A DNA stretch of 64,000 nucleotides from Amphiscolops sp. MND2022 (Eukaryota). Shown here piece by piece: positions 20,945 to 63,503 of the stretch; position 1 is the stretch's first letter, and each line of letters begins with the position of its first letter. The position numbers were made by a program, and so were the translations under genes. The stretch lies in the NCBI GenBank assembly GCA_964187785.1, contig OZ076409.1:66590001-66654000 (forward strand). Direction: 5' to 3'. The notes below the pieces were generated by a model. That model was not told where the DNA came from, made no database searches, and saw only the letters and a list, made by a program, of their open reading frames with translations.

Positions 20945-21655
20945 TTATTGCAGCGAAATTGACTGACAACCCGAACCAGTACGAAAAGTAGGTGCAAATT
21001 TGAAGCAATTACTATTACAATCGAACCAATAAGAACGGGAAATAGATCTCAAGAAACCTATACTGTCGTAAGCACGAGTATCTGAGGATGTAAATCCGTC
21101 TTTCTGGCGGTCACCAAGTGTCTTACTCTTCAAATGATTTCTAGAGTCTGAATTACGCAGAACTTCAGAATATCCTTCCGGTCTCTCAGACGGAACGTTC
21201 CATCTCTCTTTGGTCATATGTCCGGAATCGGCCATAAGGGCATTTTGAATCTGGGGAAGAACTTGATTACTAATTGCCTCACTTATAGCTCTTTGAATCT
21301 GCACGCTGACACTGTTCATCATCTCATCCATCTCCCGAGATATACGGGAATTTAACTCACTCGACAATCTGTTGATCTCAGCATTAGAACTGCCTCTAAC
21401 TGAGTTCTGACCTAATTCGGCATTTGGACTAGGTCCGTTGTTTTCAGAGTTAAATAACCTATTTTCGTCCTCATTTTCAAATTCATCACCAAAAGGACTA
21501 CCAGGTCTTCTGGCCTGGTTACTATTTAGGCTCTCACTTCTTCCATTTCTATTATAATGATTTCCTCCGAGCATTATGTCCAAATTCTCAATATCTGACA
21601 ACATTTCTGCCTCTCTTGATTTTCTCGCTTTCTTTTGTTTCCTTGTGGTAGGCAT
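20945..21655 (-). CDS. LTR-encoded Gag N-terminus (197 aa) reading out into flanking DNA (39 aa more)
   Basis: Nearly identical to the Gag N-terminus up to RAYD at the LTR edge, then continues in host flank. Expression unknown. Confidence 0.45.
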   Translation of the reverse strand: MPTTRKQKKARKSREAEMLSDIENLDIMLGGNHYNRNGRSESLNSNQARRPGSPFGDEFENEDENRLFNSENNGPSPNAELGQNSVRGSSNAEINRLSSELNSRISREMDEMMNSVSVQIQRAISEAISNQVLPQIQNALMADSGHMTKERWNVPSERPEGYSEVLRNSDSRNHLKSKTLGDRQKDGFTSSDTRAYDSIGFLRSISRSYWFDCNSNCFKFAPTFRTGSGCQSISLQ

Positions 21656-22909
21656 TGAAATTGAACCGGGTTGAATAATTTAATTATTAAAACCGGAAAA
21701 CTGACAAACGTCGTTGTAATAAAACAATCTTTATCAAAGTAAGGTTATGGAAATTGTGTCTCCCTTTGCAGGAAAGTGACTATATATACTCCTGAAAGAT
21801 GACACTTGCATTCCACGGATTCTTTGATCAAGATAATATCATGTGGTTATGTCCTCAACAGGTCATGTGACAAATATCATTACGGCATCGGGTATTAATA
21901 CTTCAAAGCAACTATTTTAGGGTGATGTCCCGATTGGGAAAATTCCTAACATTTTACAATCACAACTATTCATTCATCAAAGGCGGCATCAAAATATTTA
22001 CTAGCGCATCAAATGAAATTTCCGTCTATCAAAGAAACTAGTACTCATCATGAATATAAATAACATTGCATACATTCCTTTCTGGCACGTGCCACCACGT
22101 GACCTAAATTAGCTTTACAGCAGTGTGAAGCACCTCATGTTATTAGGCCCAATACGGCCAATTGACATATTAATAATTATATGCGTTGATTAACCGATTA
22201 GCCCCAAATACATGTACTGCATCACATTCCAAAGGAACGTAACAATTCCAATGGCCGGGAATAGCCGGCTAATTAATGGGCAAGTACTAATGAAATATGG
22301 CCTTAAGGGCCTAGCAAAAGGTTGGGTATTAAAACGAAGCATCGGTCAAGGACAAAGATCTGGCTATTATGAAAACATAAACTCAACAAACATGATTTGT
22401 TACATGTTAAATTATCACCTTATTTCAATCTTGAACTAATGGGACGGAACCGGCCATTTGACCAGTGTACCAAAAGAGAATATTAAAAGCGCGGTAATTG
22501 GCCTTACTCGGCCATTAATTAAATAGCATCAATAAACGAGATTGCATACTGCAATATGATTGGTTGAGGTAACGTGTTCAAGTGACGCTGGCGGTACATT
22601 GCCGTACGTTACTTGAACTCGTTTCCTATACTGCCTTACAGTTGCTCGTTTCATTGTATTTCCTATTGCTTTAAATTAGCGCCTTACAACTCCATCAACT
22701 CGATTGAAATTTCCAATTGTTAGATTTAACAGACTAATTGTATATAAAATGAGCGTCATCAATGATCATAATGCACAAAATAACAAAATGGCGTGAAAGT
22801 TTGATATCAATTGTAAGTTCTTAATAAATAGGTAAGGTTCCGGGTACATATTCTTGGCCAACTGCCGAAGTAGTTACTGTCGTGCCGTCACAGGCGGCAG
22901 CCTGCGACA
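21064..22909 (-). repeat. 3' LTR of element A
   Basis: Matches 35506-37351, with only two substitutions noticed by eye. Confidence 0.95.
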
Positions 22910-23603
22910 CTGCGGGTGTTATGAAAAGAAAGCATCCTGCATTAAGCCCATTCTCGTAGGCTTCTTTCCTCAACTTCGTGATGTGCTCGGGCTCGTTCCT
23001 TGGGGTGGATCGTTCCATATACCATCTGACTCTCTCACTCTTGATTGCATCTACAGAGCGGCCGCAAACCATACACCCAGTATATTGGGTCTCGCTGACG
23101 TTTTGGTAGGGCACCGAGTTCTGCACGTGATAAGACACATGAAAATCACTTACTGCGGGCTGGGTCAGAGGAGTGTCCTGGCTTGGCCCCCTCTCATGGA
23201 TTGGTGGAGACATCGGTGATTCTAGCACTGGCAGCAGCGTCTTGCAGAGCTCAATTCGTGTTTTCTCCGCTCTTTTTGACGGGGCATAGCACCTTTCGTG
23301 ATCAAAGTATTTTGTGTCTAACTTGGGAGTCACATCTTGCCCCGGCTGCCTGGTGCTTGGTCCTGCGACCATTTCTTCCTCCATACTGCTAGTCGTCATG
23401 ACACGTCCGGCAATTAGAATGGGGCTGGACACTACCTGCTTCTCCACCCTTCTGATCATTTCGTCCGTGTCCGTCGACCAGTCTGAGTCCAAATCAACTG
23501 AGGTTTCCTCATCGCTGCTTATGTAAATGACTGAATCGCCTGATGAGTCTGAGTCCAGTTCAGCCATCTCGAAGAGCTTTCCAGATTTTGCGTATTTATC
23601 CAT
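22821..23603 (-). CDS. ORF3 of element A: acidic protein of about 260 aa with a SIM-like motif and CxxC; stop codon lies inside the 3' LTR
   Basis: Open frame from ATG 23603 (track ORF starts at TTG 23651). The C-terminal peptide VSQAAACDGT.VTTSA.GQE.VPGTLPIY* is conserved with synonymous changes at the start of the element B LTR (55072-55160). Confidence 0.75.
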   Translation of the reverse strand: MDKYAKSGKLFEMAELDSDSSGDSVIYISSDEETSVDLDSDWSTDTDEMIRRVEKQVVSSPILIAGRVMTTSSMEEEMVAGPSTRQPGQDVTPKLDTKYFDHERCYAPSKRAEKTRIELCKTLLPVLESPMSPPIHERGPSQDTPLTQPAVSDFHVSYHVQNSVPYQNVSETQYTGCMVCGRSVDAIKSERVRWYMERSTPRNEPEHITKLRKEAYENGLNAGCFLFITPAVSQAAACDGTTVTTSAVGQEYVPGTLPIY

Positions 23604-24561
23604 GATGAATTTTTTAGCTATTTTGAAGTTTATGAAGGCAACTAGCTGCAAGTGAGATTCAAAGTTGAATGAATTTATAAAACTCTCCTCAGGCCGACTC
23701 GGGCCGTTTTCCCGGGGTTTCGTTTCAGCGGCAGAATCTTTGGTTAATCGGTCTGATCCGTCGTAAACTTTCCTGAATGGAGTTTCACAGCGGCGGTCCG
23801 CCCTTTGAATATCGGAACGCTGCCCCCCGAGCCCACCCTCTCAAGTAGGTAATCAGAGAGGTGTTAAGTTAACAACAACAAATAACTCCACTTCAAGAGG
23901 GTAATTAACATCAAGCTTGATATCAATTAACGGCACGCGTCAGATAAAGCCTACTAAAATGGCTTCAGCCAATCAAATTTGAGTTTCGATAAATTTGAAA
24001 AATGAATAATAAAGATGGCGAAAAATAATAATTTGAATAACTAAAATGGCGAAAATGATAAACCAAAATAATTTAGAATGGCGGAAACAACAATTTGAGT
24101 AACTATAATAACGGAAGTCCCAATTAGGATAACGAGCGAAATGGAACAAGATGATAAACTGAAATAGGGTAAACGGCCGTAATCGGCCAATAATTCCATA
24201 AGTTGTAAATAATGAAGTAAACTTTGTACATTTCGCTGGCAGACTCCATGTACTGAATAAATATGTAAATAATTAAATAATATTAGTCTGGTAATTTCTT
24301 CAGCCACGACCTCCAACTTTTATCTCTTTTCAATTGTTAACACGCATTTAGTTCCATTACCATTTAAATTGTTTACATTTGTATCCTTCAGTCTTTACTA
24401 TTCCGCTTTCCTTATCTGGATCTTCAACTTCGTTGTTGGCTTCTTCTTCCCTTTACGGAGCCCTCCGAGCCTTTCTTTCATCAGCCGTGTTAGGCCGTCT
24501 TCCCCATACTCTTCATCCGAATTTGGATAGAATCCCTTAGAACGAATTCTTCCACAACAGA

Positions 24562-27500
24562 ATGTCTTCAAAAGCAGGTTGGTCTGGGTTTTCATATTTT
24601 TGAACTAGTTTAACTTGATCAGAGCTAAGTTTGTTCACTAATTGCTTCCTGTTTCCACTACTTGGTGAACACGTGTTGATCACGTCCGTTCAGAATTTCG
24701 AACACTTCCGGAAGTTTTCTAATGCGGCAAATGGATTTCTATCAAGGAAGCATACCGCCAAATTTCATCTCCTTCTGTTTAGAAAACCAGACAAGTGATG
24801 AGACCCAAGTCCCAGCCAACCCAAGTTTAGACAATCCTGTTGAGACTGAAGTGTCAGCTCCTCATACCTCTGTTCTAACGCAATCCCAAGAGACCAAAGG
24901 GAGCACGGATAGCGAGGTTGACGTGACTACTTTCGCCGATGAGATGGTAGACATGATGGAGAAAGCCCAGACGGCAATTGCTCGCTCCCCAGATGGTACT
25001 GCCACTGTCACTTCTACTGGTGCTGATGACCGAACTCAGGAGAGGACTGAAACATTAGTCCAGGAACTAGTCAGGACAAGTACCCCAACGCTCCCCGATG
25101 AGGAAGTGTTGACCCAGTGTAACTTGTCTGCATTGGAGTCTGCACTCAGAGTAGCCACCTCGTCCAATTCCCAGCTCCCAGAACTTGTGGCCGTTGTAGC
25201 GTCACCTCCCAATGATGAAACTCTAACCAGGGCGCAATCTGGAGATGATAATGAATCCTCAGTGTACGAAGTCCCTGCTCTACCCATTGAGAAGCCCAAA
25301 GTCCACTATCTTACGGATTTCAGTGGGAGTGAGCAAACTGCAGATGAAAATAGCTTAGCAGGATGCCCTCCTTTGTACGGAACCAACCCACTGGAGATTG
25401 AGTCAGGAGCTGAAGCAGGGAGTGAGACCGGCATCAATCCCTCACATTCGATGCTCAGTAACCAAGACGGTGTGCCCCAGAGACGGCAAGATGACAGGCT
25501 TCCTGAATTATCAGGTAGAACTCGCGCCATCCTCAAAACCTACTTTGATGATGCACAGCCATTCTCTTTGCCCCTCGGACATCCAACTGTGGCTTTTACT
25601 GAGCCACAGATGTATCACCTCCTAAGGTCCCTCACTGACGAGACTATCCGAATGTCTTATACCACGATGGAGCGAATGGTGTTGGACGCAGTAAAGGGCA
25701 CCCCGACCGTGGCCCCGTCAAGGACCAGTCACTTCCAGAGCAGAGTTCGAGCCCCCACTCCCTTTGGATGCAGTGAATCAAGTGACGATGAAACTGATAA
25801 TCTCACTGGGGCCTGTCCCATAGCTGGTTCCTCGTCTGGAGCGGAAGGCACTGATACATCCGCTGGGTTCGAAGACAGCGATAGTTCCGGAGAGATGGCT
25901 CTGATCACTGAGACATTCAAGAAGAATCTCACGACGGATCTAGGACCAAATCCCACGCAGCAGTCCGGGAGCCAGTCCCAACAAGAAGAGCCTGGCCAAT
26001 CAGGCTTCAGCAGCCAAGATGCCACGTTGCTGGAAGTCCGCGATGAGGCTCTGGAACGCAAATCCAGAACAACTGCCAAGACGCAGAGGCAGAAACGCAT
26101 CAAGCGCACCACCCACAGAGGAGTCCCCATGCGTGAAGAATTTTTTGCAAAAATTGGTTGGACAAGGTCCTTCATTTCTGGACCCGCGGACCCTATCCAC
26201 AATCCTCTGATGGTTTGGTGTCACATTTGCAAAAGAAACTTTTCCATCCGCAGCAAAGGCACCATGGAAATCCTAAGGCACCACCGTTCAGAGAGGCATC
26301 TAAGAAAGGATCAGAGGTGGCGATATGAGCATCTAAAGAGTGTTGATCCCGTCACCAAGCAAGTCCAGCATCGTGTAAGAGGACGAAACGGAAAGCTTCT
26401 GAATAAGATTGAGTTAGCCAGAGAACTCCCACGTTTCATCCATTCGGAACTAGTGGACATCGGGGAACGATTCCCCTTTTATGACGATTTTATCCAGGGA
26501 CGGACCACTGCCATAGTCACCCCAGAGTCCAGGTCCAGGACCCAATTGGGCATCGTCATTGACTTCCTCAAGGACCACGGCGATTTTGCGATGCTACGCA
26601 ATCTATGGGCACGCCTTAGTTCATTCACAGACTACCAAGCTACTCTCTGTGACTTCGACTGGGGGGAAGAACGTATGACGGTAAGTTTTTATTTTCCCTA
26701 CTTGTAGGTTGACTCAATCTATTCTGCATTTTTGAAACATTCGTCTGTTTTCCAGACAATCTTCCAGCACCTGTTCAATTGCGCTATGAGCGAAATAGCG
26801 GAGTGCGTGGCTGCAGAACAGTGCTTTGCCATAGAATTTGAAGACAGCAATGTCAACCGCTTCATGTCCCTTCGGTTCTGGAAGGGGACTGAATTGTGTC
26901 GCGTCCTCGTCTGTCGCAGCGAGCTACCCTCTTCGGAATTGTCAGGAGAACTAGGGTCTCTCTCACGGCTCCTATCTGCAGTCTCCACCAATTGCGACGT
27001 GGTGGCTTGTTCTGGCTGCCCCGTTGACTTTGTTAGGACAATCGACCATTCCCCACTCTTCTCAAGAGCAGTGCAGGCGTCCTTCCGGTTTGAGACCTTG
27101 TCCCTCTCCAGACTGATGCACAAACCCAGTTATAGCGTCTTCGGGCATATCGACTTCTTTTCGGTCCTTCATGCCTTAGTCATCACCCTGGGTGGATCTC
27201 TCTCTGAGGATTGGGTACTGCAGAGCCCCACCTTATCTCAGGTAATCACTTTCCGATTATGGTAGGAATGTTGTACCTTGGACAGATAAGAGGCCCTGGT
27301 TATTTCCTTTACGGACACTAATACAATACGTTATTTAGGCCATAACTTCATGCAAATTGGATCTTCCCACTCTTCCTGTCCTATGTCAGGAACTCATCAT
27401 CGCCTGGAAGTCCGTTGTGCGCTACCTAACGGAACACTCACCCCGACAACAAGGACAGGGGGTTCGAACGAGAGTAAGTCCACTAAGAGATTGGTTTTCC

Positions 27501-28898
27501 TTCCCCTTAGGTCCCAACGTTAAATTTCGGTACCTTTCAAAATGTCCTCATAATTCAGGCTAACTGATATTTTCCCATTACAGGCACAGAGCTTTGAGTG
27601 GACCCTCATCTGTGATGAGTTCTTCACCATCAAATTGGAATTCTTTTGCAAGCTCGTCAGTGACTGTTAGTATCACTACTTAGCCTCCTCTAGGACGTGT
27701 CTTTAACTCATATATAAGGTCCGCCTTTGTTGTAGATACTTCCAGTTTTGCGGTCAACCTGCAACAGCGACGAGATGGGTCCTTCTTCCTGTGTGGTGAG
27801 GTCTCTCGTTATATACATCAACTCTGTTTCCGGATCTACACCGCTGATACAGTCCCATTGGAAAATGCATGGTTCCAGCTCCTCAATTTCCGTACTTCAG
27901 ACGGAGTTTTCATCCCCGAGGCGGAGTTTCTGGCTCGTCTCAAGATCACCAACAAGGTCGCAACAGCCAGTAAGCAGAGGTCAGAAGGGGTCCATTCTGG
28001 TCAAAAGACTGAGCGTTCCGTAATCCAGAAGACAGCGGAGGCAATCAAGTCGAAGTTTGTCCAAGACGGGCAAAACTACCTGAAGTACTTATTGGGAGAG
28101 GTCCTCCATGAACCCGGTCTTAGCTCTAACATCATCAAAGGTCTGGCTGCTTTTGATCCAACTGTCATGCTCAAGAGGCCAATCGACATTGCTCTTAAGC
28201 ACTTTGAGTTGTTATACAGCACTTTCCTCCTCCGCTCTTGGGTCCTCGAGGCCGATGAGTCAGCTTGTCGGGATGATTATTTGGCTCTTCTCGATCATCT
28301 CCGAGGGAATTACCCCCCTACCTATGACGTCACCAGTGCCTCTCGAGACTTGATTGAATTCATGATGACCTTGGACTTCCTTCAGTCACGGGAGCGGCTT
28401 GTTTATTTGTTTAAGCTTTGCTGTCTGTGTGCAACCTCTGTTACCCCTACTTATCCAGTAGTAACTGCCGGGAGTGTGAGTACGGCGGGTCACCGAGGCA
28501 GATTTACCGATGTTATTCTGCCTGTCCAGAGTTATATAAGCTCAGTTCCTGGATCAGCCGCTTTCTGTTGTAATGAAGCTAATCTGTCCAAATTTTCTTT
28601 ATTCGCTTCCTCCTTTGGACGATCTGCCTTCTCAGCCGATTACGACCCTTGGGCGTACGTTGACGATTTTGGCCGCTCCAAAATTTACAAATCGCTGCTG
28701 TCCACCTACAAATCCATTCTCTCAGTGCCTAAGGCAGTTTCCACTGAGGCAGGAACCAGGGGCGACGATAGTGTCGCCGATGAATGTGCTCTGAAAGCCC
28801 CCAGCGCTAGCAAGCGCAGGAGGATGAGTCGGAGCGCTTCTCGATCTAGGACCTCTTCTGTCGTGGATGAGTGTGTCCCTAGTTCTTCTAAAAACTAA
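24562..28898 (+). CDS. Antisense spliced cargo gene of element A: BED-finger, hAT-transposase-like protein of about 1228 aa. Predicted exons 24562-24577, 24783-26680, 26756-27241, 27339-27473, 27584-27655, 27736-27795, 27879-28898
   Basis: Six GT-AG introns (205, 75, 97, 110, 80, 83 nt) whose phases join the track ORFs 24722, 26732, 27357, 27748 and 27858 into one frame. WCHIC-x16-H-x5-H zinc finger at 26216-26299. A homolog sits at the same position in element B. Exon 1 and the last two junctions are less certain. Confidence 0.75.
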
Positions 28899-29171
28899 AT
28901 GTACATATGTAATTATGTACAACCAGTTGTAAACTTTGTTGATTTCTTTCCGTTTCTGTTATATTTTTATTTCTTGTCGTTGTGTTTATTTGTATTCCAT
29001 TTGTTGCCAATTTCTTGATCCCATATTATTCCCTTGAAGGGATCATTGTCAAACGTCCCGATATTTATTCAAAAAATACCACTTTCTGGGACTGAAAAGA
29101 AAAGAAATAATGATAAAAGGAAGAGAAAAGATAGTTCGGCGTCCGTTTTCGGGCACAATTTAATCTTTCCT

Positions 29172-32100
29172 TTAGTATCTAAAGTCTTCTGAGTAGTTAG
29201 GGGTAGGATTAGGTCTGAGATTATATTTCCCAGCTCTAGGACTCAGATTTTCATTTCCTTCTTCATTTTGCGGTATTTCGGGCACGATAATATCATCCCC
29301 CCTATTTGGAGAATTTTCTGCATCTTTTTCATTCATCAAATTTCTTTCTGGAAAGTTTGCATCGTCTTTTAGTCCTTCAGCCGTATTCGGCACAGATTTT
29401 TCTTGGGTTTTTGGGGAAACGGCCGGATTTGGCCAATCAAATTCGTCATTTCTAATAGCTTCAGTAGCTTTATTTCTTTTAGTGACGTCATCAATTAATC
29501 GTTCATTCCGGCTATGCGACGCGCGGTCAGTGAAATTTGATTCGTCACTCGTGATTACATAATCAACTTCATTCTCGCTTGCGTCATTTGCGTTCGGTTC
29601 TGCCGTAGTTGGCTGTTCGTCATTTGTCAAGCTGGTCGGAATAGTCTCTCTGCCTCGTGTGTCTAGTTGTTCGCCAAAGTTTGTTTCCCACGTTATTACA
29701 TACAAGTCGTCTTGCGGAATGATTATTTCATCATCCGGCTGTAGACGCTGTTCTCGGAAATTGTCCTCAAGTGGTTGATTTGGCACAAACTTTTTGAGAC
29801 GAATTCGATGCAATATCTGCGTTTTATTTGTATTAAGCCTGCGGACAATGTAATTCTCATTAGGTAAGGTCTTCTGGACTATAAACGGTCCAACCCAACG
29901 ATAATCCCTGAATGGAATTTTTGATCCTTGATGATCCGCTTTCGGCTGTAATACAAAACAGTAATCGCCCTCTTTGAGTGGGGCGGCTTTTGCTTTTCGG
30001 TCGTAATACTCCTTATATTTGATATATGACTGCATGATGTTCTGCTTTGTTTTGTCAATAAGGAGTTTGGTCCGGTTCTGGATTTCTTCGGCAAATTCAG
30101 TAGTCGGATGGATTGGCTCATTTGGATTCATTCCAAGTTTGTGATCCAATATGTTGTATGGGATTCTCCCATGGAACACTCTTGTGGGTTCGCATCCGAT
30201 ACTGGCATGATAACTAGTGTTATGATTGAGAACTGCTAAAGGCAAATATTTATGCCATTGTCGGCGATATTCCCCACATGCCATTTTCAGGTTCGTTTTC
30301 AATGAGGCATGCGTTCGCTCTAATTTCCCGATAGTTTGCGGGTGTTTCGTCGTTGCACATTTTAGGGTAATGCCTAAAATCTGTGTAATTTCCGCAATGA
30401 TCGTGGAGGTAAAGGCAGTTCCTTTGTCCGTAATGAGCGTCGTCGGTAGGTAAGAATGTTTGGTCATAATATCAATGATTGCTTTAGCTACATTGATCGC
30501 TGATGCGTCCGTAAGAGGATAAGCAAACAAGTATCGAGAGAAGACATCAATTGCAGTTAAAACATTTTCGTATCCTCCACTTGGGGGAAGATTCGGCAAT
30601 AAGTCGATTTGCATGGCGTCTTCGGGTCCAAGGTCCCATTCCGGCAAGTTAAGTAGTTCAGGCGTGATTGTTGCGTTTGGGACTCGTTTGTCCTTTGCAC
30701 ATTGTTCACACCCTTCTACCCACTTTTTGACATGTTTTGCCATGTTAGGGTAATAATACTTTTGTCTGATTTCCTGCAACATTTTTGAAATCCCGGGATG
30801 TTTATGCGCTGTCCCATGAAGGGAGTGGAGCACTTCCCGGAGTAGGTGTTGCGGGAGCAAAATTTGATGGTATTTAACATTCCCTGTTTCATCAAAATAT
30901 TGCCTTGTCAGGATTTCGTCTTTGAGTACGATTCGCTCCAGATTATTTGCATAGTGTCTATATCGAGCATCTTGTTGCAGTATGTTTTCTGAATAATCTT
31001 CATGAAGGAGTTTCGCCTTCAATTGTTGTAATACTGTATCTTTGGATTGCTCAATGATGATCTGGTTCATTTTCCTCAATCGGACTTGTACATCGGGGTG
31101 TTGCTTGACCAGATTTGTTGATAAAGTTTGTATAGTAACGGTGGGCTCATCAATTGCTGGGTTTTTCCTGATTGCTTCTTTCCTTGCCCAAGCCTGTTCC
31201 TCTGTCTCATCGTCGTCATTGGTGTAGAAGATTTGTTCTTCTTGCGACACCCCTGCGGATTGGACATTGATTTCAATTGGTAAAGTTTGTACGTCCTCAC
31301 GGATTTTCATGACTAATTTATCCTTCGGGTCTGCCTCCAATCGGGACAAATAGTCAGCTGCTGTATTCTGTGCCCCCGGGATGTGTGCTATGACAAAATT
31401 GAACTGAATCACATAATCACATGCATTCCACAGGGCTGGGGGTATTATTTTCGTTTGGAAAAATCTCGTGACCGCTTTGTTGTCCGTAAGGATGATGACC
31501 GGTTTCGGCGCACCCCAGAATATATGTCCGAATTCTTTGAATGCAAAGTAAATTGCAAGGAATTCTTTTGCATAAATTGACATCTTTATCTGGGCTGGGG
31601 TGAAAATTTTTGATCCGTATGCGACTGGTGCATACGATTTCCTGAGTGACGTGAATTTCTGGTTCGGGTCATCTTCGATTAAGACCGCGTATCCGGCTGC
31701 ACCAAAACTTGCGTCAGTCATTAGTGCTATTTGTTTGTTCGGAATGGGTTGTTGTAATGCCAAGTCGCAACATTTGTCAAGTGCTTTGTTGATTTCCTCG
31801 AATTGTTGGACCAATTCTTTCGATACCAGGACCTTTTCGTCACTCTTTAGCATCTTGTAGAATGGTGCAAGGCGTTCTGAAAGTCTTGGGACATAGTTTC
31901 TGTAGTAATTCAAGAATCCCAAGTAGCGCTGCAAAGCCTTTTTCGACTTTGGGAACTTGGTCTTTTCCAGAAAGTTTTGCACGTTTTGTTTCTGGGGTTT
32001 GACGCCTTGCGGGGTAATAGTCCGTCCGAGAAAATCAATTTCTTTGGCACCAAAGTGACATTTATGCATTGTCAATTTAAGGCCTGCTTCCTGAATGCAT

Positions 32101-34379
32101 TTGAATGTAGCCCTCAGGTTAGCTATGAGGTGGTCAGCATCATTTGCTGCGATGCCTATATCGTCCACGTACTGGGCACACTGATCCGCTTTGATGACTT
32201 TGTCCAGGTATTCTCTCATAAAACTCGAGAATGCGGATAGTGACCGGCTAAGGCCTTGTGCCAGACGTCTGTAGGCGAATGTGCGACTGGCAAAATTGAA
32301 AGCCAACATTTCAATTGAACGTTGGTCGGCCATTGGTAGACAATGGTATGCCTGCGAACAGTCTAATTTACAGAAGAGTTTTTTGCCTGCCAAGTGTTGG
32401 GCAGCATCAACCAAGGTGCTTACAGGGTGATTATTGTTTATATAATCATCCGAGATGAGGTTGTTGATTTTCCTCAGGTCAACCAAAAGTCGTAGCTTTC
32501 CATTTGGTTTCTTTTGGGCGAATATTGGGCTGGCATACTTGGAGAACGGTAAAGTGGTGATGATGCCATATTTGTGTAACATGGCTAATTCAACTAGGAT
32601 GTCCTCCTTCAAATTGATAGGAGCTGGAAGACTTTGACTATAGGCTGGGGAATCGTCCTTAGGTGTCAGTTTCACCTTGAAGTCCTCTTTCATGCCTATA
32701 TCGAATCGGTGTCGTGCAAAGATGTCGTGAAATTCCACTAACAATTCCTCTATTTTCTCCTTCTCTTCAGGAGTAAGGGTGGAATCTTTCCAGTCAAAGT
32801 TTTCTAAGAATTTTGCACGTGATTCTTCGTCTTTTGTGGGGTCAAGAGTCTCTAGGTCTTGTAGGGCTTGTAATTCTTGAAGGATTCGTTTTTGTATGGG
32901 TGTGTGTTCCTCAGGATTTCCAGGGTTTTCTGGAGTTGGGAACCAGTAATTTTCAGTGTTTTGTGGGTTTCTGTTTGTCTTGATCAGGCTACTGACGTAA
33001 TGGGCTGCTTGTTCTTGGTCGGTTTGTAACAAATGCCAGGTTGATGCCGGGTCTACCGGTTTGACGTATTTCATTTGCTCTGGCGTCATGACAGAGAAAT
33101 TGGCAATATGTAATCCCTTTTTGAGTTTATAGGGGTGGTCTGTGAAATTATTCACAGGTATCGATATGTTGCCATCATTCAGAGTGACCAAGGCTGGGCA
33201 AAAGGTGATGTCGCCTTCTTCATGTAGAAGGTCGCTCGGTTGTAAAATCCCAGTGACAGCATTTTCAGGATACAGTAGGGAATTGGTCCTAATTAGGACT
33301 CTGTCGTTTGGCGGAATGGTTATTTCAGTGGGGTTGAGAATTGGTTCTAGTACATTTGAATATTTATGATCAGCTGTTTTGAGCTGCATTGAAAAGAATG
33401 GGAAGTTTAGTATTCCTTGTCTCATGTCCAGGACTGTATGATTTCGTTGAAGGAACATTAGTCCAATGATCGGACCTGTCAGGTGTTCCATGACTATGAA
33501 AATCTCGTGAAACTCGATGTCACCAACTTCAAATTTGAGCTCTATGGTACTCTTGGGAGTTTCCAATTGCCCATTAGCGACCATTATTTGGAAATTCGGA
33601 GGCGGGCCCTCCCGGATAACAGATTGTGGAGATAAAAGTCGGATTTTCCGGAGGTCCATTTCAGGATTTGCACTGGACAGCGCTCCAGTGTCGATGAGTC
33701 CATCTATGGTCAATTCTCCAAAGTCCATTGGGAAATACAACATGCGTTTCTTGCATTTGAGATTGATGTTGGTTGACAAAGGTATACAGTCTGGTTCGCC
33801 GTCCCTTGTGATTAGGACATTTTGGAATTGTTTCTCGTCTAGTAGTGATTGTTGTATGGGCTCAGTATTGTTGTCATGGTTCTCGGTCCCCAATGGGTTT
33901 GGGAATACCGGGTGGCGTGTACCATCATTCATCTGCCATGTTTCAATCAATGCTCTGGTTTTCTTGTTATGGGTGATTGGTGGATTGTCATGGACTGATC
34001 TGTTATAGAGTTCTATATCATCAATAACGTATTGGAATTGCAACAAATCCTGGTTATAAAGTTCGGTGTCCCAATAGGGATCTCGTCCATAGTCAGGATC
34101 TATGTAGGTAGGATTGTAGTCATCTACCAAGGGAATGGGCCTGAATCGGCTATTGAAAACAGATGTGTAATCAGGGTCCCATACAGGAATTGGTTTTTGG
34201 AACAAATGGGTATTATTATAGGTAATAATGGTAGCTTTTTCCATCTGTTGCTGCCAGACAACAGAAGGGTAGCCCATCAGTTGCTGCTGATAGTTATGAA
34301 AGCTCTGAGTTGGAGGGTCCGATTTGATGTATTGTCGGACAGAGACTAATTGGTTATATTGGAGTCGTGGCGAAGTTAG
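29172..34379 (-). CDS. pol: Pol polyprotein of element A (protease, dUTPase-like region, RT, RNase H, integrase with GPF motif)
   Basis: LIDTGA, YVDD, MTDAS, HHCC finger, QIDL/TDKG/LERTH and WVGPF motifs. The frame is open upstream of ATG 34277 back to the slippery site. Confidence 0.95.
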   Translation of the reverse strand, partial: LTSPRLQYNQLVSVRQYIKSDPPTQSFHNYQQQLMGYPSVVWQQQMEKATIITYNNTHLFQKPIPVWDPDYTSVFNSRFRPIPLVDDYNPTYIDPDYGRDPYWDTELYNQDLLQFQYVIDDIELYNRSVHDNPPITHNKKTRALIETWQMNDGTRHPVFPNPLGTENHDNNTEPIQQSLLDEKQFQNVLITRDGEPDCIPLSTNINLKCKKRMLYFPMDFGELTIDGLIDTGALSSANPEMDLRKIRLLSPQSVIREGPPPNFQIMVANGQLETPKSTIELKFEVGDIEFHEIFIVMEHLTGPIIGLMFLQRNHTVLDMRQGILNFPFFSMQLKTADHKYSNVLEPILNPTEITIPPNDRVLIRTNSLLYPENAVTGILQPSDLLHEEGDITFCPALVTLNDGNISIPVNNFTDHPYKLKKGLHIANFSVMTPEQMKYVKPVDPASTWHLLQTDQEQAAHYVSSLIKTNRNPQNTENYWFPTPENPGNPEEHTPIQKRILQELQALQDLETLDPTKDEESRAKFLENFDWKDSTLTPEEKEKIEELLVEFHDIFARHRFDIGMKEDFKVKLTPKDDSPAYSQSLPAPINLKEDILVELAMLHKYGIITTLPFSKYASPIFAQKKPNGKLRLLVDLRKINNLISDDYINNNHPVSTLVDAAQHLAGKKLFCKLDCSQAYHCLPMADQRSIEMLAFNFASRTFAYRRLAQGLSRSLSAFSSFMREYLDKVIKADQCAQYVDDIGIAANDADHLIANLRATFKCIQEAGLKLTMHKCHFGAKEIDFLGRTITPQGVKPQKQNVQNFLEKTKFPKSKKALQRYLGFLNYYRNYVPRLSERLAPFYKMLKSDEKVLVSKELVQQFEEINKALDKCCDLALQQPIPNKQIALMTDASFGAAGYAVLIEDDPNQKFTSLRKSYAPVAYGSKIFTPAQIKMSIYAKEFLAIYFAFKEFGHIFWGAPKPVIILTDNKAVTRFFQTKIIPPALWNACDYVIQFNFVIAHIPGAQNTAADYLSRLEADPKDKLVMKIREDVQTLPIEINVQSAGVSQEEQIFYTNDDDETEEQAWARKEAIRKNPAIDEPTVTIQTLSTNLVKQHPDVQVRLRKMNQIIIEQSKDTVLQQLKAKLLHEDYSENILQQDARYRHYANNLERIVLKDEILTRQYFDETGNVKYHQILLPQHLLREVLHSLHGTAHKHPGISKMLQEIRQKYYYPNMAKHVKKWVEGCEQCAKDKRVPNATITPELLNLPEWDLGPEDAMQIDLLPNLPPSGGYENVLTAIDVFSRYLFAYPLTDASAINVAKAIIDIMTKHSYLPTTLITDKGTAFTSTIIAEITQILGITLKCATTKHPQTIGKLERTHASLKTNLKMACGEYRRQWHKYLPLAVLNHNTSYHASIGCEPTRVFHGRIPYNILDHKLGMNPNEPIHPTTEFAEEIQNRTKLLIDKTKQNIMQSYIKYKEYYDRKAKAAPLKEGDYCFVLQPKADHQGSKIPFRDYRWVGPFIVQKTLPNENYIVRRLNTNKTQILHRIRLKKFVPNQPLEDNFREQRLQPDDEIIIPQDDLYVITWETNFGEQLDTRGRETIPTSLTNDEQPTTAEPNANDASENEVDYVITSDESNFTDRASHSRNERLIDDVTKRNKATEAIRNDEFDWPNPAVSPKTQEKSVPNTAEGLKDDANFPERNLMNEKDAENSPNRGDDIIVPEIPQNEEGNENLSPRAGKYNLRPNPTPNYSEDFRY

Positions 34380-36097
34380 TTTTTTGACTCATCATTAGAG
34401 GATGAGGATTGGGAGCTCGATAATGTCGGTTTGGTCTGAGGTTTCTGAGCCTTTGGATTGGGTTTACCGTTATTGGCGTCATCTGGTCTGGTGCGTTTGG
34501 GTTTGAGATGTGCACCAGCACCTTGCCAACATCTTTCTTCCGGGTGGTTCTTTTTACCACAAGTGCCACACTCCGGGTACGTCTTTTTCTGAGTCTGTTT
34601 GCCTTGTTGGGCATCTTTTTCTTTTTTCTTCTTCAATTTCTCGCAATCTTTGACCATGTGGCCCTTTTCTTTGCAATAATTGCACGTTATATCACTCATC
34701 TGTACGTTGGAAGGAACAGTTTTTGTCTTGCCAATCGAAGATGTCATTGATGCTATGGGCAGGTCGTCAGACTCTTCAAGTGCATTCAGTTCCAGTTCTC
34801 GCTCTAGATGAGCGACAATTTCATCGTAAGAGCCATTCTCTAGTCTAGCCATGTTGACTGATCTTTTGAGCTTTGGTGGCAGTTTTGCATATAGGAGACT
34901 GTCAATCATTTTTTGGGCATTGTCTCCGAAGGCTTTTTCTGCTCCTTGGTTAAGCTCTTCAAGAAAGTCTGGCAATTTGGTCGTGTTAGGGTCAAAGACT
35001 AGGCGATGCCATTTGTGTTTTGCCGTTGCCTGAGATTCAGGTTTGACGTACTTTCGTCTGAAAATGACAAGTACATCTTCAAGAGTTTGTCTATTGGCGT
35101 TGCTGATGTTTCTGAATGTTTGGAGTGCATTCTTTCGCAGCAAGGAATGGAAGTGATTGATTTTCATTTGTTCGGTCATCTCAGGCTGCATCTTGATCAT
35201 CGTATGGAATAAATCCTCAAACAGCTCGAACTTCTCACTTTTTCCGTCGAATGTCATTGTGTTGGAGTTGACTGGGCGGATAGTGAGTTGTTGGGCCGTT
35301 GGACGGTTCTGCATACTAGTCAAAACATCTGCTAGCCTGTTGATGGGGTCTTGTTCTGATGCCAGAGCGGGTCGTTCTTGTGCTGGGATCGTCGTGTCGA
35401 GCAGCGGAAGGTCATCACAGGATCTGTTGAGATGAGTAGTGGATGGCATTCGTCCTGTGAGAAACTCAGGAACTTCAATTGGAGATTCGTTTTCTCCTGT
35501 CACCATGTCGTAAGCACGAGTATCTGAGGATGTAAATCCGTCTTTCTGGCGGTCACCAAGTGTCTTACTCTTCAAATTATTTCTAGAGTCTGAATTACGC
35601 AGAACTTCAGAATATCCTTCCGGTCTCTCAGACGGAACGTTCCATCTCTCTTTGGTCATATGTCCGGAATCGGCCATAAGGGCATTTTGAATCTGGGGAA
35701 GAACTTGATTACTAATTGCCTCACTTATAGCTCTTTGAATCTGCACGCTGACACTGTTCATCATCTCATCCATCTCCCGAGATATACGGGAATTTAACTC
35801 ACTCGACAATCTGTTGATCTCAGCATTAGAACTGCCTCTAACTGAGTTCTGACCTAATTCGGCATTTGGACTAGGTCCGTTGTTTTCAGAGTTAAATAAC
35901 CTATTTTCGTCCTCATTTTCAAATTCATCACCAAAAGGACTACCAGGTCTTCTGGCCTGGTTACTATTTAGGCTCTCACTTCTTCCATTTCTATTATAAT
36001 GATTTCCTCCGAGCATTATGTCCAAATTCTCAATATCTGACAACATTTCTGCCTCTCTTGATTTTCTCGCTTTCTTTTGTTTCCTTGTGGTAGGCAT
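34376..36097 (-). CDS. gag: Gag of element A (573 aa, two CCHC knuckles); first 197 codons lie in the 5' LTR
   Basis: CNYCKEKGHMVKDC and CGTCGKKNHPEERC knuckles, plus a capsid-like FDGKSEKFELFEDLF region. Confidence 0.93.
   Translation of the reverse strand: MPTTRKQKKARKSREAEMLSDIENLDIMLGGNHYNRNGRSESLNSNQARRPGSPFGDEFENEDENRLFNSENNGPSPNAELGQNSVRGSSNAEINRLSSELNSRISREMDEMMNSVSVQIQRAISEAISNQVLPQIQNALMADSGHMTKERWNVPSERPEGYSEVLRNSDSRNNLKSKTLGDRQKDGFTSSDTRAYDMVTGENESPIEVPEFLTGRMPSTTHLNRSCDDLPLLDTTIPAQERPALASEQDPINRLADVLTSMQNRPTAQQLTIRPVNSNTMTFDGKSEKFELFEDLFHTMIKMQPEMTEQMKINHFHSLLRKNALQTFRNISNANRQTLEDVLVIFRRKYVKPESQATAKHKWHRLVFDPNTTKLPDFLEELNQGAEKAFGDNAQKMIDSLLYAKLPPKLKRSVNMARLENGSYDEIVAHLERELELNALEESDDLPIASMTSSIGKTKTVPSNVQMSDITCNYCKEKGHMVKDCEKLKKKKEKDAQQGKQTQKKTYPECGTCGKKNHPEERCWQGAGAHLKPKRTRPDDANNGKPNPKAQKPQTKPTLSSSQSSSSNDESKN
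34379..34385 (-). promoter_or_regulatory. -1 ribosomal frameshift slippery heptamer A AAA AAC
   Basis: Sits immediately before the gag TAA. The -1 frame (LTSPRLQYN...QQLMGYP) is the pol frame. The same arrangement occurs at 58047-58053. Confidence 0.85.
35494..35505 (-). promoter_or_regulatory. Primer-binding site TGGTGACAGGAG abutting the 5' LTR
   Basis: TGG directly follows the LTR-terminal CA. The same 12-mer is at 56930-56941 in element B. Cognate tRNA not determined. Confidence 0.75.
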
Positions 36098-37351
36098 TGA
36101 AATTGAACCGGGTTGAATAATTTAATTATTAAAACCGGAAAACTGACAAACGTCGTTGTAATAAAACAATCTTTATCAAAGTAAGGTTATGGAAATTGTG
36201 TCTCCCTTTGCAGGAAAGTGACTATATATACTCCTGAAAGATGACACTTGCATTCCACGGATTCTTTGATCAAGATAATATCATGTGGTTATGTCCTCAA
36301 CAGGTCATGTGACAAATATCATTACGGCATCGGGTATTAATACTTCAAAGCAACTATTTTAGGGTGATGTCCCGATTGGGAAAATTCCTAACATTTTACA
36401 ATCACAACTATTCATTCATCAAAGGCGGCATCAAAATATTTACTAGCGCATCAAATGAAATTTCCGTCTATCAAAGAAACTAGTACTCATCATGAATATA
36501 AATAACATTGCATACATTCCTTTCTGGCACGTGCCACCACGTGACCTAAATTAGCTTTACAGCAGTGTGAAGCACCTCATGTTATTAGGCCCAATACGGC
36601 CAATTGACATATTAATAATTATATGCGTTGATTAACCGATTAGCCCCAAATACATGTACTGCATCACATTCCAAAGGAACGTAACAATTCCAATGGCCGG
36701 GAATAGCCGGCTAATTAATGGGCAAGTACTAATGAAATATGGCCTTAAGGGCCTAGCAAAAGGTTGGGTATTAAAACGAAGCATCGGTCAAGGAAAAAGA
36801 TCTGGCTATTATGAAAACATAAACTCAACAAACATGATTTGTTACATGTTAAATTATCACCTTATTTCAATCTTGAACTAATGGGACGGAACCGGCCATT
36901 TGACCAGTGTACCAAAAGAGAATATTAAAAGCGCGGTAATTGGCCTTACTCGGCCATTAATTAAATAGCATCAATAAACGAGATTGCATACTGCAATATG
37001 ATTGGTTGAGGTAACGTGTTCAAGTGACGCTGGCGGTACATTGCCGTACGTTACTTGAACTCGTTTCCTATACTGCCTTACAGTTGCTCGTTTCATTGTA
37101 TTTCCTATTGCTTTAAATTAGCGCCTTACAACTCCATCAACTCGATTGAAATTTCCAATTGTTAGATTTAACAGACTAATTGTATATAAAATGAGCGTCA
37201 TCAATGATCATAATGCACAAAATAACAAAATGGCGTGAAAGTTTGATATCAATTGTAAGTTCTTAATAAATAGGTAAGGTTCCGGGTACATATTCTTGGC
37301 CAACTGCCGAAGTAGTTACTGTCGTGCCGTCACAGGCGGCAGCCTGCGACA
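35506..37351 (-). repeat. 5' LTR of element A
   Basis: 1846-bp repeat with a TATA-like TATATATA at about 36223-36230 upstream of the gag ATG, conserved in element B at about 56211. Confidence 0.95.
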
Positions 37352-55071: not shown

Positions 55072-56929
55072 TGTCGCAGGCTGCCGCCTGTGACGGTACG
55101 AGTGTGACAACGTCGGCAACTGGACAAGAATTCGTACCCGGAACATTACCCATTTATTAATTGGGATAATTTACAAACTTAGAACTTTCATACTGTTTTG
55201 TTATTCAATATGTAATATGTTTGTTGATGTTGTTAGCTTCGATATATATGTACTTGCACATGTAAAATTAGTCTGTTAAAAGTCACATTTGAAGATTCAA
55301 ATAGTGTATTTGTAACTTCAAAAGATTGAAAGGCGCTTTGCTATTGTAAACGTAATACGTGACAATGTAGCTGTACAGTAGAAAGGAAACGAGTTCAAGT
55401 GAACGAAACTCCTATTCCGGAGACGTCACTTGAGCTCAACTCCTTAGCCAATCACGTTGCTCCTTTTCTATAAGTAATACCACTTTGATTATGTAATGGC
55501 CGAGTATGGCCAATTGACTCAATAATTGTGCCTTTTAGTCAAACGGCCGGTTCCGGCCACTTCGTTGGAATAGCCTGTATGTGTGTTAATTGGGTGTACT
55601 AATCGTAAATTACTGTAAATGTACTCTTAATAATGAATGAAAGCCCCAATGCCGCGCAATGAGCTTAATAAACCTAGTACTCACTCAAAAGCCGAATAAG
55701 GCTTTCTCCCTCTTTTATTACAGTGCTGAATTAATAAACCGGATTTGTCCATCTTCGGCATTGTCAGAAAGTGTGTTATTTTAATAATGCTGTATTATTT
55801 TAAGCAGAACTGATCATGTAATATTTAATCTAGTTCCTACTCACGTTGAATAATAGGCGCGTGGTAACGCGTGTCACAAGCACATTCCGAAGAGATGCCT
55901 TTTGCATTCCTTCAATAGACATTGGTATTTGTTGACAGGATGATGTTGATGATGTTTATAAACACGACACTTGAAGGTGCTGCTTGTGTACCCTGTTAAA
56001 TATCATTCTTTTGATGTTGAATTCCTAAGGACTACCCTGAAACTAGGAATTTTCCCAATCGGGACATCACCCTAAAATATCTGCTTTGAAGTGTTGAACA
56101 CCCTACCCGATGCTGTAATAACACTTGTCACATGACCCGTTGAGGCCATAGTCATATGATGTTTTCTTGATCAAAGAATTTGTGGAATGTGAGTGTCATC
56201 TTTTTAGGAGTATATATAGCTATATTTCTGTAAAAAAGGACACAAATCCCATACCTTTACTTTGATAAAGATTGAATTAATACAACGACTTTTGTCAGTT
56301 TTCCGGTTTTGATAATTGAATTATTCAACCCGGTTCTGTCTTAATGCCTACCACTAGAAAGCAAAAGAAAGCGAGAAAGTCTAGAGGACTTGAGATGTTA
56401 TCAGATATTGAAAATCTGGATATCATGTTAGGAGAAAACCATTTTGGTGCACGAGAAAGAGAAGGTAGCCTGAATAGCAATTTACCTAGGAGGTCTAGGA
56501 GTTTTGCTAGTAATGAGTCTGGCAATGGGGACGGGAACGGAAGTAGACCCAGGGGAAATATTGAACCTAGGATGAGTGCCGAGTGTGATCGCAATTCTAT
56601 CACAGGTCATTCTAGCGCTGAAATAAACAGATTGTCTAGCGAACTGAAATCTCGTATTTCACGGGAAATGGATGAGATGATGAATTCCGTAAGTGTCCAA
56701 ATACAGAGAGCCATACACGGCGCGATAAGTACTCAAGTACTTCCTCAAATCCAAAATGTTATAATGGCCGAACCAGGACACAGGATCAGAAAGGGATGGG
56801 ACGTTCCGGCCGAGAGACCGGAACCAAATTCCGAAGTTCAGCGAGACCTTAACGCAAAGAGTAGCTTAAGAAACGAACAATATGTGAATCAATTGAACGG
56901 TGATTACCCTGACCTAAATGTTCATGACA
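55072..56929 (+). repeat. 5' LTR of element B (1858 bp, inferred by homology)
   Basis: TGTCG start and TGACA end followed by the PBS. The partner LTR is outside the window. Predicted TSD is CTAAT (55067-55071). Confidence 0.8.
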
Positions 56930-58056
56930 TGGTGACAGGAGACAACGAATCTCCAAATCCAGTTCCTGAGTTTCTCACAGGACGCATCTCATCCCGAAAT
57001 CATCTCGACAGGTCCTTTGAGGACATCAACCTCGACACGACGATCCCAGCACAAGAGAGAATCGCTACGGCTGCTGACTCCGACCCCATCACCCGACTGG
57101 CAGACGTCTTGACTACAATGCAAAATAGACCGACAGCCCAACAACTCACCATACGCCCAGTCAACTCAAATACCATGACATTCGATGGCAAAAGTGAGAA
57201 ATTCGAGCTGTTCGAAGACCTATTTCACACTATGATCAAGATGCAGCCAGAAATGACTGAGCAAATGAAGATCAATCACTTCCACTCTTTATTGAGGAAG
57301 AATGCTCTTCAGACGTTCAGAAATATCAGCTCAAGCAACCGATAAACTCTAGAGGACGTACTAGTCATCTTTAGACGGAAATACGTCAAACCCGAGTCAC
57401 AGGCGACTGCCAAACATAAATGGCACCGCCTAGTCTTCGATCCCAATACGATGAAGCTGCCTGATTTTCTCGAAGAATTAAACCAGGGAGCCGAGAAGGC
57501 GTTTGGTGATCATGCACAGAAAATGATTGACAGCTTGCTCTATGCAAAATTGCCACCTAAGTTGAAGCGGTCTGTCAACATGGCCAGACTAGAAAATGGC
57601 TCATATGATGAAATTGTTGCTCATTTGGAGAGAGAGTTGGAACTCAACGCCCTTGAGGAATCAGATGACCTACCAAAGGCCACAATGACCTCCTCGACTA
57701 CAAAATCTAAAACTCCTCTGTCCACTGGGCAAATGTCAGACATTACTTGCAATTATTGCAAGGAAAAAGGCCACTTGGTCAAAGACTGCGAAAAACTGAA
57801 AAAGAAAAAAGAGAAAGATGCCCAACAAGGCAAGTCAACGCAGGAGAAAACATACCCGGAGTGTGGCACTTGTGGCAAAAAGAACCACCCGGAAGAACGA
57901 TGTTGGCAAGGTGCTGGTGCACATCTTAAACCCAAACGCACTAGACCTGAGGACTCAACTGAGATTAAGCCCAATCCAAATGCTCAGAAACCTCAGACCA
58001 AACCGACATCATCGGGCTGCCAATCCTCATATCCTAATGATGAGTCAAAAAACTAA
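56344..58056 (+). pseudogene. gag: Gag of element B with a premature stop
   Basis: TAA at 57343-57345 where element A has CAA (Gln). The same frame continues to 58056. Confidence 0.85.
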
Positions 58057-63260: not shown

Positions 63261-63503
63261 AAAAGATTGAATTTTGGCCAGGAGACAAGCCTTGGACCTA
63301 TTCCTTTTCTTCTATCATTTCATTTCTTTTATTTTTTCAGTCCCATGCAACATGGTATTTTTTGAATAAATAATGGGACAACCGAAGAACCCCTTTCAGG
63401 TAAATAAATACAGAGGCATTGCAACAAATGGAGATACAAAAGACAACAAAACAGAAAAATAACAAAGTTTACAGTTCATAAGTACATAAATACATATGTA
63501 CAA

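Follow-up and report, generated by a model that had tools for sequence, protein, structure and literature searches.

The closest described counterparts of the gene reported here are the TRP28 antisense open reading frames (ORFs) of the plant Ty3/gypsy elements Retand, Grande and RIRE2, which almost every active member carries between pol and its 3′ LTR and which are proposed to encode a nuclear DNA-binding regulator; the available text of that study reports no similarity of TRP28 to other transposable elements (TEs), and the word 'intron' does not appear in it (PMC11963269). TE-encoded accessory proteins acting on cognate elements, the working model adopted here, are exemplified by TnpA of Spm/CACTA and VANC of VANDAL (bioRxiv 10.64898/2026.08.24.746577; PMC13317346; PMC5735166), of which TnpA is described in the accessible text as a derivative of the element's own transposase (bioRxiv 10.64898/2026.08.24.746577). 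Among animal LTR elements, those of rotifers and the planarian element Burro have captured extra ORFs downstream of pol, as far as the accessible text describes them (PMC6431247).

The window, a 64,000-nucleotide stretch of the Amphiscolops sp. MND2022 genome (contig OZ076409.1, positions 66,590,001 to 66,654,000), contains a Ty3/gypsy element with a gene, hereafter the cargo, that recalls each of these systems and departs from all of them. With about an even chance of being right, we read it as an antisense, intron-bearing accessory gene belonging to a Ty3/gypsy clade, likely a disarmed hAT transposase, whose spliced product is predicted to be a regulator that binds DNA in the nucleus and aids expression of its carrier. 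It resembles the Retand-type ORF in its antisense position between pol and the 3′ LTR and in its proposed DNA-binding regulatory role; unlike TRP28, it has four introns, a BED finger, a probable hAT fold and a history of cassette swapping, and Pfam scans of the cargo gave no match to TRP28 (PF04195). TnpA and VANC reside in DNA transposons, whereas the cargo is probably a foreign class II protein within a retroelement. With the rotifer and Burro elements it shares capture of a gene downstream of pol in a long gypsy-like element, but the accessible text names no hAT-derived, antisense or intron-bearing cargo there (PMC6431247). Full-text literature searches, with most subscription journals and supplements outside their coverage, likewise turned up no LTR element with a hAT-derived cargo.

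A spliced gene antisense to its Ty3/gypsy carrier

The carrier is an intact element of 16.3 kb (21064-37351), flanked by a 5-bp target-site duplication (TSD; left copy 21059..21063, right copy 37352-37356) and encoded on the reverse strand. Its 1,846-bp LTRs (5′ LTR, 35506..37351; 3′ LTR, 21064..22909) have TG...CA ends and differ at 2 positions. A primer-binding site starting with TGG (35494..35505, reverse strand) immediately follows the 5′ LTR and is the same in other lineages; gag, with zinc knuckles (34376..36097, reverse strand), starts inside that LTR and reads through the site. A 1,738-codon open frame of pol (29172..34388, reverse strand) encodes protease, reverse transcriptase (RT), RNase H and integrase in Ty3/gypsy order. 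Terminal dinucleotides, short TSD, primer-binding site and domain order together identify the carrier as Ty3/gypsy. No polypurine tract precedes the 3′ LTR in the window lineage, where a pyrimidine-rich stretch stands instead; a short tract rich in G occupies the site in clades II and III. Within the 3′ LTR, a small sense ORF ends and the beginning of gag is duplicated.

A second accessory ORF (22821..23660, reverse strand; 279 amino acids, with a CxxC motif) runs on the same strand as gag-pol, extends into the 3′ LTR and lies head-to-head with the cargo gene; it is kept in all three LTR clades and had no significant match in a Pfam scan. The window holds another element of the same clade (56044..64000, forward strand; ~84% nucleotide identity), whose gag has a stop codon and whose own cargo gene (L050), just outside the window, has a core 64% identical to that of the first. 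The carrier family is large and recently active. Retroelements in general are very abundant in this genome.

The cargo gene occupies 24731-28898 on the forward strand, antisense to the carrier and between pol and the 3′ LTR, with five exons, four introns and ~1,271 codons. The first-pass annotation had placed it at 26216-28450, which falls inside the gene but understates its extent. Residues are numbered here from an ATG at 24722, a candidate start rejected in favour of the ATG kept across lineages, at 24731. Directly ahead of that codon lies a conserved non-coding block (24596..24730, forward strand) with a palindromic TTCCGGAA, which we take to be an ETS-type core; the block is a putative internal promoter and, equally putatively, the left edge of an exchanged cassette.

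Exon 1 (24731..26680) encodes an acidic disordered N-terminus, a basic patch, the BED-like finger and a helical region that, placed by eye, sits where the hAT N-terminal dimerisation domain would be. Exon 2 (26756..27241) encodes a predicted RNase H-like alpha/beta core, exon 3 (27339..27473) a helix where hATs have the RW motif, and exon 4 (27584..27665) is 82 nt long; exon 5 (27736..28898), like the others on the forward strand, supplies a helical insertion-like domain, a Dimer_Tnp_hAT-like region without ERxFS and a basic, NLS-like tail. Diverged copies repeat the same exons and GT-AG junctions, beyond what chance would give. At the exon 4/5 junction, a conserved donor at 27666 (phase 1) joins the acceptor at 27736 and maintains a long open frame; the peptide initially proposed across it was mis-spliced from a donor at 27656, which we rejected; natural copies lacking this intron (L095, L097 and L172) show the 27666 junction. 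Two precise intron losses among the copies imply a spliced mRNA. Since the gene is antisense to the genomic RNA, its introns would stay unspliced there and so survive reverse transcription.

Probable hAT ancestry and the state of the catalytic motifs

The BED-like finger (26216..26299, forward strand) has ligands C500, C503, H520 and H526 (CxxC...H...H, 26219-26299), all four invariant in 24/24 per-copy models. Aligned with Ac/ZBED sequences in hhalign it scored E 3.6e-4, against 0.073 for the reversed control; the Pfam zf-BED profile did not match it. The first 455 residues are acidic and of low complexity, with 16% D+E, 7% K+R and 31% S+T+P. Finger and acidic, disordered N-terminus thus stand as the first-pass annotation described them, as do the beta-1, beta-4 and C-terminal motifs, found in the order given, the basic tail and the absence of ERxFS.

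We consider it likely, though unproven, that the gene derives from a hAT transposase. The case begins with structure. A Foldseek search of the exon-2 model (pLDDT ~43-44) against 350,542 PDB chains placed Hermes at ranks 1-3 and 5-8, with 2bw3_A the best match (E 0.02, prob 0.75); no match reached E 0.001. In a second-look structure comparison of the same model, Hermes held ranks 1, 2, 4 and 7, with a weak Z of 2.8, an rmsd of 4.8 and 100 aligned residues starting at Hermes residue 153; a wide aligner search gave Z ≤ 3.0 throughout, with Hermes absent from its list. The predicted order of exon 2 is helix-3 strands-helix-strand-helix-strand. Among ESM neighbours, where scores below 0.9 count as leads only, Dimer_Tnp_hAT clusters accounted for 23/30 exon-5 hits at 0.93, and zf-C2H2_12/FAM200/zf-BED clusters for the end of exon 1 at 0.83-0.86. 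Block order and spacing fit a hAT, the helix plus beta-1 ranking 3 and the RW helix ranking 1 against Ac.

Profile searches were less favourable. Pfam scans of all exons, copies and alignment members covered gave no hAT family match. Profile-profile comparison of the core with alignments of 30 Ac-type and 50 Tip-type sequences was not significant, global hhalign was uninformative, and the collinear-block score was reached by 31/300 shuffles for Ac and 236/300 for Tip; these tests used Ac and Tip alignments, and ESM points towards the Buster/FAM200 type. Word-based searches found no longer homologs of exon 5, sequence-profile searches of the PDB returned nothing below E 0.2, the exon-5 model (mean pLDDT ~43, as for exon 2) had no meaningful fold match, and a search of phage DNA was empty. 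Run on this genome, the cargo profile missed the resident hAT ORFs, and neither DUF4371 nor zf-C2H2_12 gave any signal there, their controls being equally silent; for that reason no donor hAT was identified.

These negative or borderline HMM-level core tests would suit a protein that shares only its BED finger with hATs, the remainder being another RNase H-fold or an unrelated protein. We regard this as improbable: an unguided search of the whole PDB puts Hermes first, the ESM neighbours of a separate exon, exon 5, are hATs, and block order and spacing agree with Ac.

The cargo shares with Hermes and active hATs a BED finger, a predicted RNase H-like topology, a long helical insertion and a Dimer_Tnp_hAT-like C-terminal region; it differs from them in lacking DDE, CxxH, RW, terminal inverted repeats (TIRs) and an 8-bp TSD, and in an added acidic N-terminus of 450 residues. 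The region that Pfam calls 'dimerisation' is, in Hermes, a part of the catalytic domain carrying the third acidic residue, so likeness there tells little about dimerisation.

Judged from the aligned copies, the cargo transposase has lost its hAT catalytic motifs: catalytic Asp, CxxH, RW and ERxFS are missing from every one at the hAT-equivalent positions. Across 44 copies the first-Asp position in beta-1 is E33/A7/V4 and never D, the second, after beta-4 in a register set by eye, is S37/T7 followed by an invariant Gly, and the His of CxxH is replaced (F42/Y2). In the window copy the two Asp-equivalent positions, both in exon 2, are E682 (26840) and S739 (27011), and CxxH is absent. The RW pair is absent in 24/24 copies, exon 3 of the window copy included, an E[RK]xFS motif occurs in none of the database hits checked, and neither C-terminal register holds a motif of the ERxFS type. 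No inverted pair brackets the gene within 23700-29300, nor does an 8-bp TSD.

The initial claim that DDE is lost therefore stands for the catalytic set but not as a lack of acidic residues, since the first position is Glu in 33/44 copies, E680 and D750 are invariant in 44/44, and position 1168, in the alternative C-terminal register of the block test, is acidic in 38/44 (D25/E13/other 6). Such acids could mark a rearranged nuclease or metal site in a protein that is not fully dead. That seems very unlikely to us: the second Asp is Ser or Thr in 44/44 copies, the first is Ala or Val in 11/44, CxxH and RW are lost, the gene has no flanking TIRs, and position 1168 would be consistent with an ordinary helix cap.

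Purifying selection, cassette exchange and CMC transposons

The cargo gene is under purifying selection. Four unsaturated pairs gave dN/dS of 0.03, 0.04, 0.08 and 0.15; exon 5 of 29 young copies holds 51 synonymous, 42 non-synonymous and 0 stop variants (pN/pS 0.28), and pN is lowest in the BED block in all three clades. Many single copies do have stops or frameshifts, 5/18 complete non-window models reading through in full length, as would be expected of a passive passenger, a nested hAT insertion without function. We rejected that explanation, which is exceedingly improbable given dN/dS of 0.03-0.15, introns and exon phases conserved among cores only 34-68% identical to the window copy, and the lack of TIRs. 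The first proposal of a captured hAT is supported in part: the carrier is a class I LTR element, the cargo is under selection and lacks the catalytic set, and the ancestry is probable.

Among 65 cargo loci sampled from ~7,000-7,800 first-look candidates per search, 60 lie in this LTR clade and 5 in CMC DNA transposons, so that 0/65 is a host locus outside mobile elements. The gene is present in all three pol clades sampled, and most members, in a sample chosen by cargo presence, carry it antisense in the interval from pol to the 3′ LTR. It is like the host-domesticated ZBED, FAM200, GTF2IRD2 and ZMYM1-like genes in combining a BED-type finger with a transposase scaffold, lost catalysis and purifying selection. 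Host-domesticated hAT genes are fixed and low-copy; the cargo, unlike them, is multi-copy and within mobile elements at 65/65 sampled loci.

The cargo is exchanged as a discrete cassette among backbones otherwise 90-99% identical. Outside the cassette, elements L127 and L139 share 90-99% identity, which drops to 49-61% within it; the breakpoints lie just ahead of the ATG and at the stop codon of pol, and the pairs L123/L127 and L093/L099 show the same pattern. Conversely, L135 and L139 have cargo genes 81-93% identical and LTRs just 53-61% identical, on which we rejected strict pairing of cargo and LTR. That the cassette moves independently of the LTR speaks against a tight VANC-like code in which each protein matches one LTR; unlike TnpA and VANC, the cargo is bound to no single LTR type and retains a whole dead catalytic scaffold.

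The CMC transposons that bear the cargo are 35-38 kb long and likely acquired it from the retroelement. Their transposases are 98% identical and their cargo genes 73-78%, and the cargo is intact and constrained there, although these elements carry neither integrase nor RT. Family-wide swapping and this second capture were absent from the first-pass annotation.

Such coexistence of old, synonymous-saturated versions on near-identical backbones (RT dS 0.08-0.09), repeated in the CMC copies, is what one might expect of a factor engaged in conflict by way of protein contacts, blocking a silencing or restriction protein of the host or poisoning competing elements, with divergent versions under frequency-dependent selection. 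We think this unlikely, as pairwise averages give no sign of positive selection, the most conserved part is a DNA-binding-type finger, and exchange at conserved flanks could shuffle versions without selection. A replication cofactor, tethering integrase or cDNA ends to chromatin or aiding nuclear transport rather than controlling transcription, would suit a gene found in all three pol clades sampled, and transposase scaffolds do bind DNA ends and multimerise; free swapping among pol backbones and constraint in CMC elements devoid of integrase and RT make it rather improbable.

A proposed portable regulatory cassette

The regulatory role that we prefer is a prediction from protein anatomy and analogy. 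In an ancestral element, a hAT would have inserted antisense downstream of pol and then lost its TIRs. An internal promoter would drive transcription of the cargo, followed by splicing and translation; basic motifs would bring the protein into the nucleus, where the conserved BED finger, on its transposase scaffold, would bind DNA and the acidic N-terminus might activate or unsilence chromatin in the manner of TnpA or VANC. Recombination at the cassette edges would shuffle old, divergent versions between backbones, and a CMC transposon may have adopted the cassette for the same benefit.

The wider reading, to which we give somewhat less than an even chance, is that the domestication of a hAT was the work of a retrotransposon clade, not of the host, and turned it into a portable cassette for regulation or against silencing; within one genome, a single accessory gene would have passed from class II to class I and back to class II. 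On this equally tentative view, ancient and divergent versions, numbering in the dozens, would be traded among LTR backbones, and a giant CMC DNA transposon would have recruited the cassette again.

Accounts of transposase domestication usually have a host taking over a gene from a transposon; here another class of transposon, and then a third, would have done so. An antisense LTR accessory ORF would thereby gain a traceable origin, where the available text of the Retand study found none for TRP28 (PMC11963269). The cargo also shows a route by which intron-bearing genes may travel within a retroelement, and its many versions on near-identical backbones would form a natural comparative panel for asking how retroelements counter silencing.

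An antisense gene in a Ty3/gypsy element

The 1.07-Gb eukaryotic assembly that holds the window (G000) carries a complete LTR retrotransposon at 21064-37351 (minus strand), with TG...CA ends, a 5-bp target site duplication (TSD) and two LTRs that differ at 2 of 1,846 bp. Its pol (29172-34388, minus strand) encodes protease, RT, RNase H and integrase in Ty3/gypsy order, behind a long N-terminal extension and with no in-frame ATG near its start; pol overlaps the end of gag in a different frame, which suggests that the two may be expressed by frameshifting. The gag start lies some 590 bp into the 5′ LTR (35506-36097), so that each LTR contains about 197 gag codons, and the frame crosses the primer-binding site, which is thereby coding.

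Two additional genes, head to head, occupy the interval from pol to the 3′ LTR: a sense ORF of about 279 amino acids (22821-23660, minus strand) and the antisense cargo. The sense ORF, in which a CxxC and a C-terminal motif are conserved, matches no family; it extends into the 3′ LTR, is found in all three major clades of cargo-carrying LTR elements and moves with the LTR rather than with the cargo. A short G-rich tract stands ahead of the 3′ LTR in clades II and III. The window's clade has no polypurine tract there (22910-22940): the stretch is rich in pyrimidines and forms part of the small ORF's coding sequence. This clade has been recently active despite the missing tract.

The cargo comprises five exons (24731-26680, 26756-27241, 27339-27473, 27584-27665 and 27736-28898; about 1,271 amino acids, numbered from an upstream ATG at 24722), and a block with a palindromic core upstream of the ATG is conserved across lineages. 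Complete models were recovered from 18 of the 20 diverged loci fetched first, and 16 of the 18 have GT-AG at all four predicted junctions, these dinucleotides being the actual test because exon ends there were extrapolated from alignments; the same junctions recur in more distant lineages. Intron 4 is precisely missing from loci L095, L097 and L172 and intron 3 from L159, L160 and L169; for each loss, the loci placed on the tree group in a single clade. These losses bear out the junctions and imply that the cargo mRNA is spliced. The copies lacking intron 4 support a conserved donor at 27666, replacing the wrong donor behind the exon 4/5 peptide of the first-pass annotation. Given LTR-element replication, the antisense orientation would let the introns persist through reverse transcription.

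An exon 5 search scored 107 of 7,762 candidates, 29 of them full-length copies at 97-100% identity, and querying with divergent relatives revealed more lineages. Among 65 loci chosen non-randomly to span lineages, 59 have pol antisense beside the cargo, in one other gag and the small ORF lie upstream, and the remaining 5 carry the cargo without gag or RT. In a second element of the window's clade (56044-64000, plus strand), gag contains a stop codon (57343-57345) and pol is open; its cargo, which is intact, lies past the window edge. Exon 5 and the pol tail are tandemly duplicated at L042 and gag-LTR segments at L147/L148, and three cargo copies stand at about 14.1-kb spacing in G000:C5:3368637-3397971, which together suggest tandem element arrays. 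A profile search returned 607 representative proteins (E ≤ 0.001), all exon-sized among the 150 matches listed and with no named protein among the members read in 10 clusters; some lack a close counterpart in G000 (best 29-45%), so other genomes probably carry the family.

Elsewhere in the window, an uninterrupted 371-codon frame (13777-14892, minus strand), serine/threonine kinase-like by eye, is possibly a host gene or retrocopy. Degenerate gag/protease/RT-like frames of a different LTR family (39946-43095, plus strand) include an inverted repeat (41065-41518), and members of a dispersed non-coding repeat family, which contain internal subrepeats, occur in both orientations (1965-2641, 13033-13730, 39588-39879 and 51668-51886).

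Origin and catalytic state of the cargo

The first-pass annotation read the cargo as a catalytically dead hAT transposase captured by a retroelement. Its BED-like finger aligns with Ac/ZBED sequences (E 3.6e-4; reversed control 0.073), but Pfam scans of the cargo returned no hAT family match. Exon 5 has Dimer_Tnp_hAT clusters as ESM neighbours (0.93; 23 of 30), and FAM200/GTF2IRD2/zf-BED clusters are among those of the exon-1 end (0.83-0.86). The exon-2 model has an RNase H-like element order, and in an unguided Foldseek search of 350,542 PDB chains Hermes took the top rank (E 0.02) as well as ranks 2, 3 and 5-8; agreement from a second aligner was weak (Z 2.8, rmsd 4.8, 100 residues), and both cargo structure models lie near pLDDT 43. 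HMM-HMM comparisons of the core with hAT alignments were not significant, and in a block-order test the score was reached by 31 of 300 shuffles with Ac and by 236 of 300 with Tip. Taken together, the cargo is probably hAT-derived.

The genome's own hAT ORFs do display the motifs against which the cargo was compared. Across 44 cargo copies, aligned in registers set partly by eye, no Asp occupies either catalytic position: the first reads E33/A7/V4 and the second S37/T7. At the His of CxxH the residues are F42/Y2, none of 24 copies has RW, ERxFS is missing from both C-terminal registers, and no terminal inverted repeats flank the gene. The proposed loss of the DDE triad needs qualifying: two acids, E680 and D750, never vary among the copies, 38 of the 44 have D/E at position 1168, and a residual metal site may survive, though this is unlikely. 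Judged by its sequence, the cargo is not an active hAT, and the core of the original idea stands once its splice is corrected and its hAT origin is graded as probable.

Cassette exchange and a second carrier

Cargo cores share 34-68% identity with the window copy and RT/RNase H 83-99%, and both trees recover the same three major clades. In pairs such as L127/L139, L123/L127 and L093/L099 the cargo is about 50-70% identical within surroundings mostly at 90-99%, with identity falling at, or a few hundred bases upstream of, the cargo ATG and returning at the pol stop; L135/L139 show the opposite pattern for the LTR. These patterns indicate that the cargo is swapped as a unit, regardless of LTR type.

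Three near-identical 35-kb elements (L131, L141 and L143) and the related L164 (38 kb, both ends found) and L180 carry an intact five-exon cargo without gag or RT. Their terminal inverted repeats begin CCCC, 2-bp TSDs are clear in three copies and ambiguous in one, and a 654-amino-acid ORF matching DUF1258 (E 4e-9; Transposase_21 and DUF4218 matches both below cut-off) is a CMC/EnSpm-type transposase. At G000:C2 ~29298731-29334037 (L150, L149, L131 and L132) the 35-kb type has an intact transposase and forms tandem arrays; it also contains an ORF weakly matching a SET domain (E 0.075) and, by eye, a stretch resembling a BEN domain. Because CMC-borne cargo clusters with the LTR-borne lineage L165 (support 1.0), nested inside the family, and a 133-bp remnant of the 3′ end of pol persists in the 35-kb type (83% identity, E 2e-32), transfer was likely from LTR to CMC elements. 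The two CMC types have transposases 98% identical but cargo only 73-78% identical, with saturated synonymous sites, and would reflect either two captures or a later cargo swap.

Constraint and predicted role

Four pairs with unsaturated dS give cargo dN/dS of 0.03, 0.04, 0.08 and 0.15 (the five remaining pairs are saturated), and exon 5 in the 29 young copies has 51 synonymous, 42 non-synonymous and 0 stop variants (pN/pS 0.28). The lowest pN in every clade is in the BED block, the DNA-binding-type finger being the most constrained part of a protein that joins basic patches and a transposase scaffold to an acidic, disordered N-terminus in which one block is conserved. This predicted architecture is that of a transcription regulator.

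The cargo also stays constrained in a DNA transposon without RT and integrase, which disfavours a role in particle or cDNA handling and favours a general chromatin or transcription benefit. Our preferred reading, to which we give an even chance, is a nuclear regulator that would raise expression of the elements carrying it; the main rival, a protein-level conflict factor, we regard as rather unlikely.

In arrangement, the gene comes nearest to the TRP28 ORF that plant Retand elements carry in antisense; the author of that work was unable to trace where TRP28 came from (PMC11963269). The closest mechanism is that of TnpA, reported to be transposase-derived (bioRxiv 10.64898/2026.08.24.746577), or VANC (PMC13317346). 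Host ZBED-type genes show a similar decay pattern but are host loci. Full-text literature searches brought up neither an LTR element with a hAT-derived cargo nor cassette swapping like this, nor any relay into CMC elements. The cargo is a real, functional, family-wide feature and, if its predicted role holds, would belong with the known accessory regulators that transposable elements encode.
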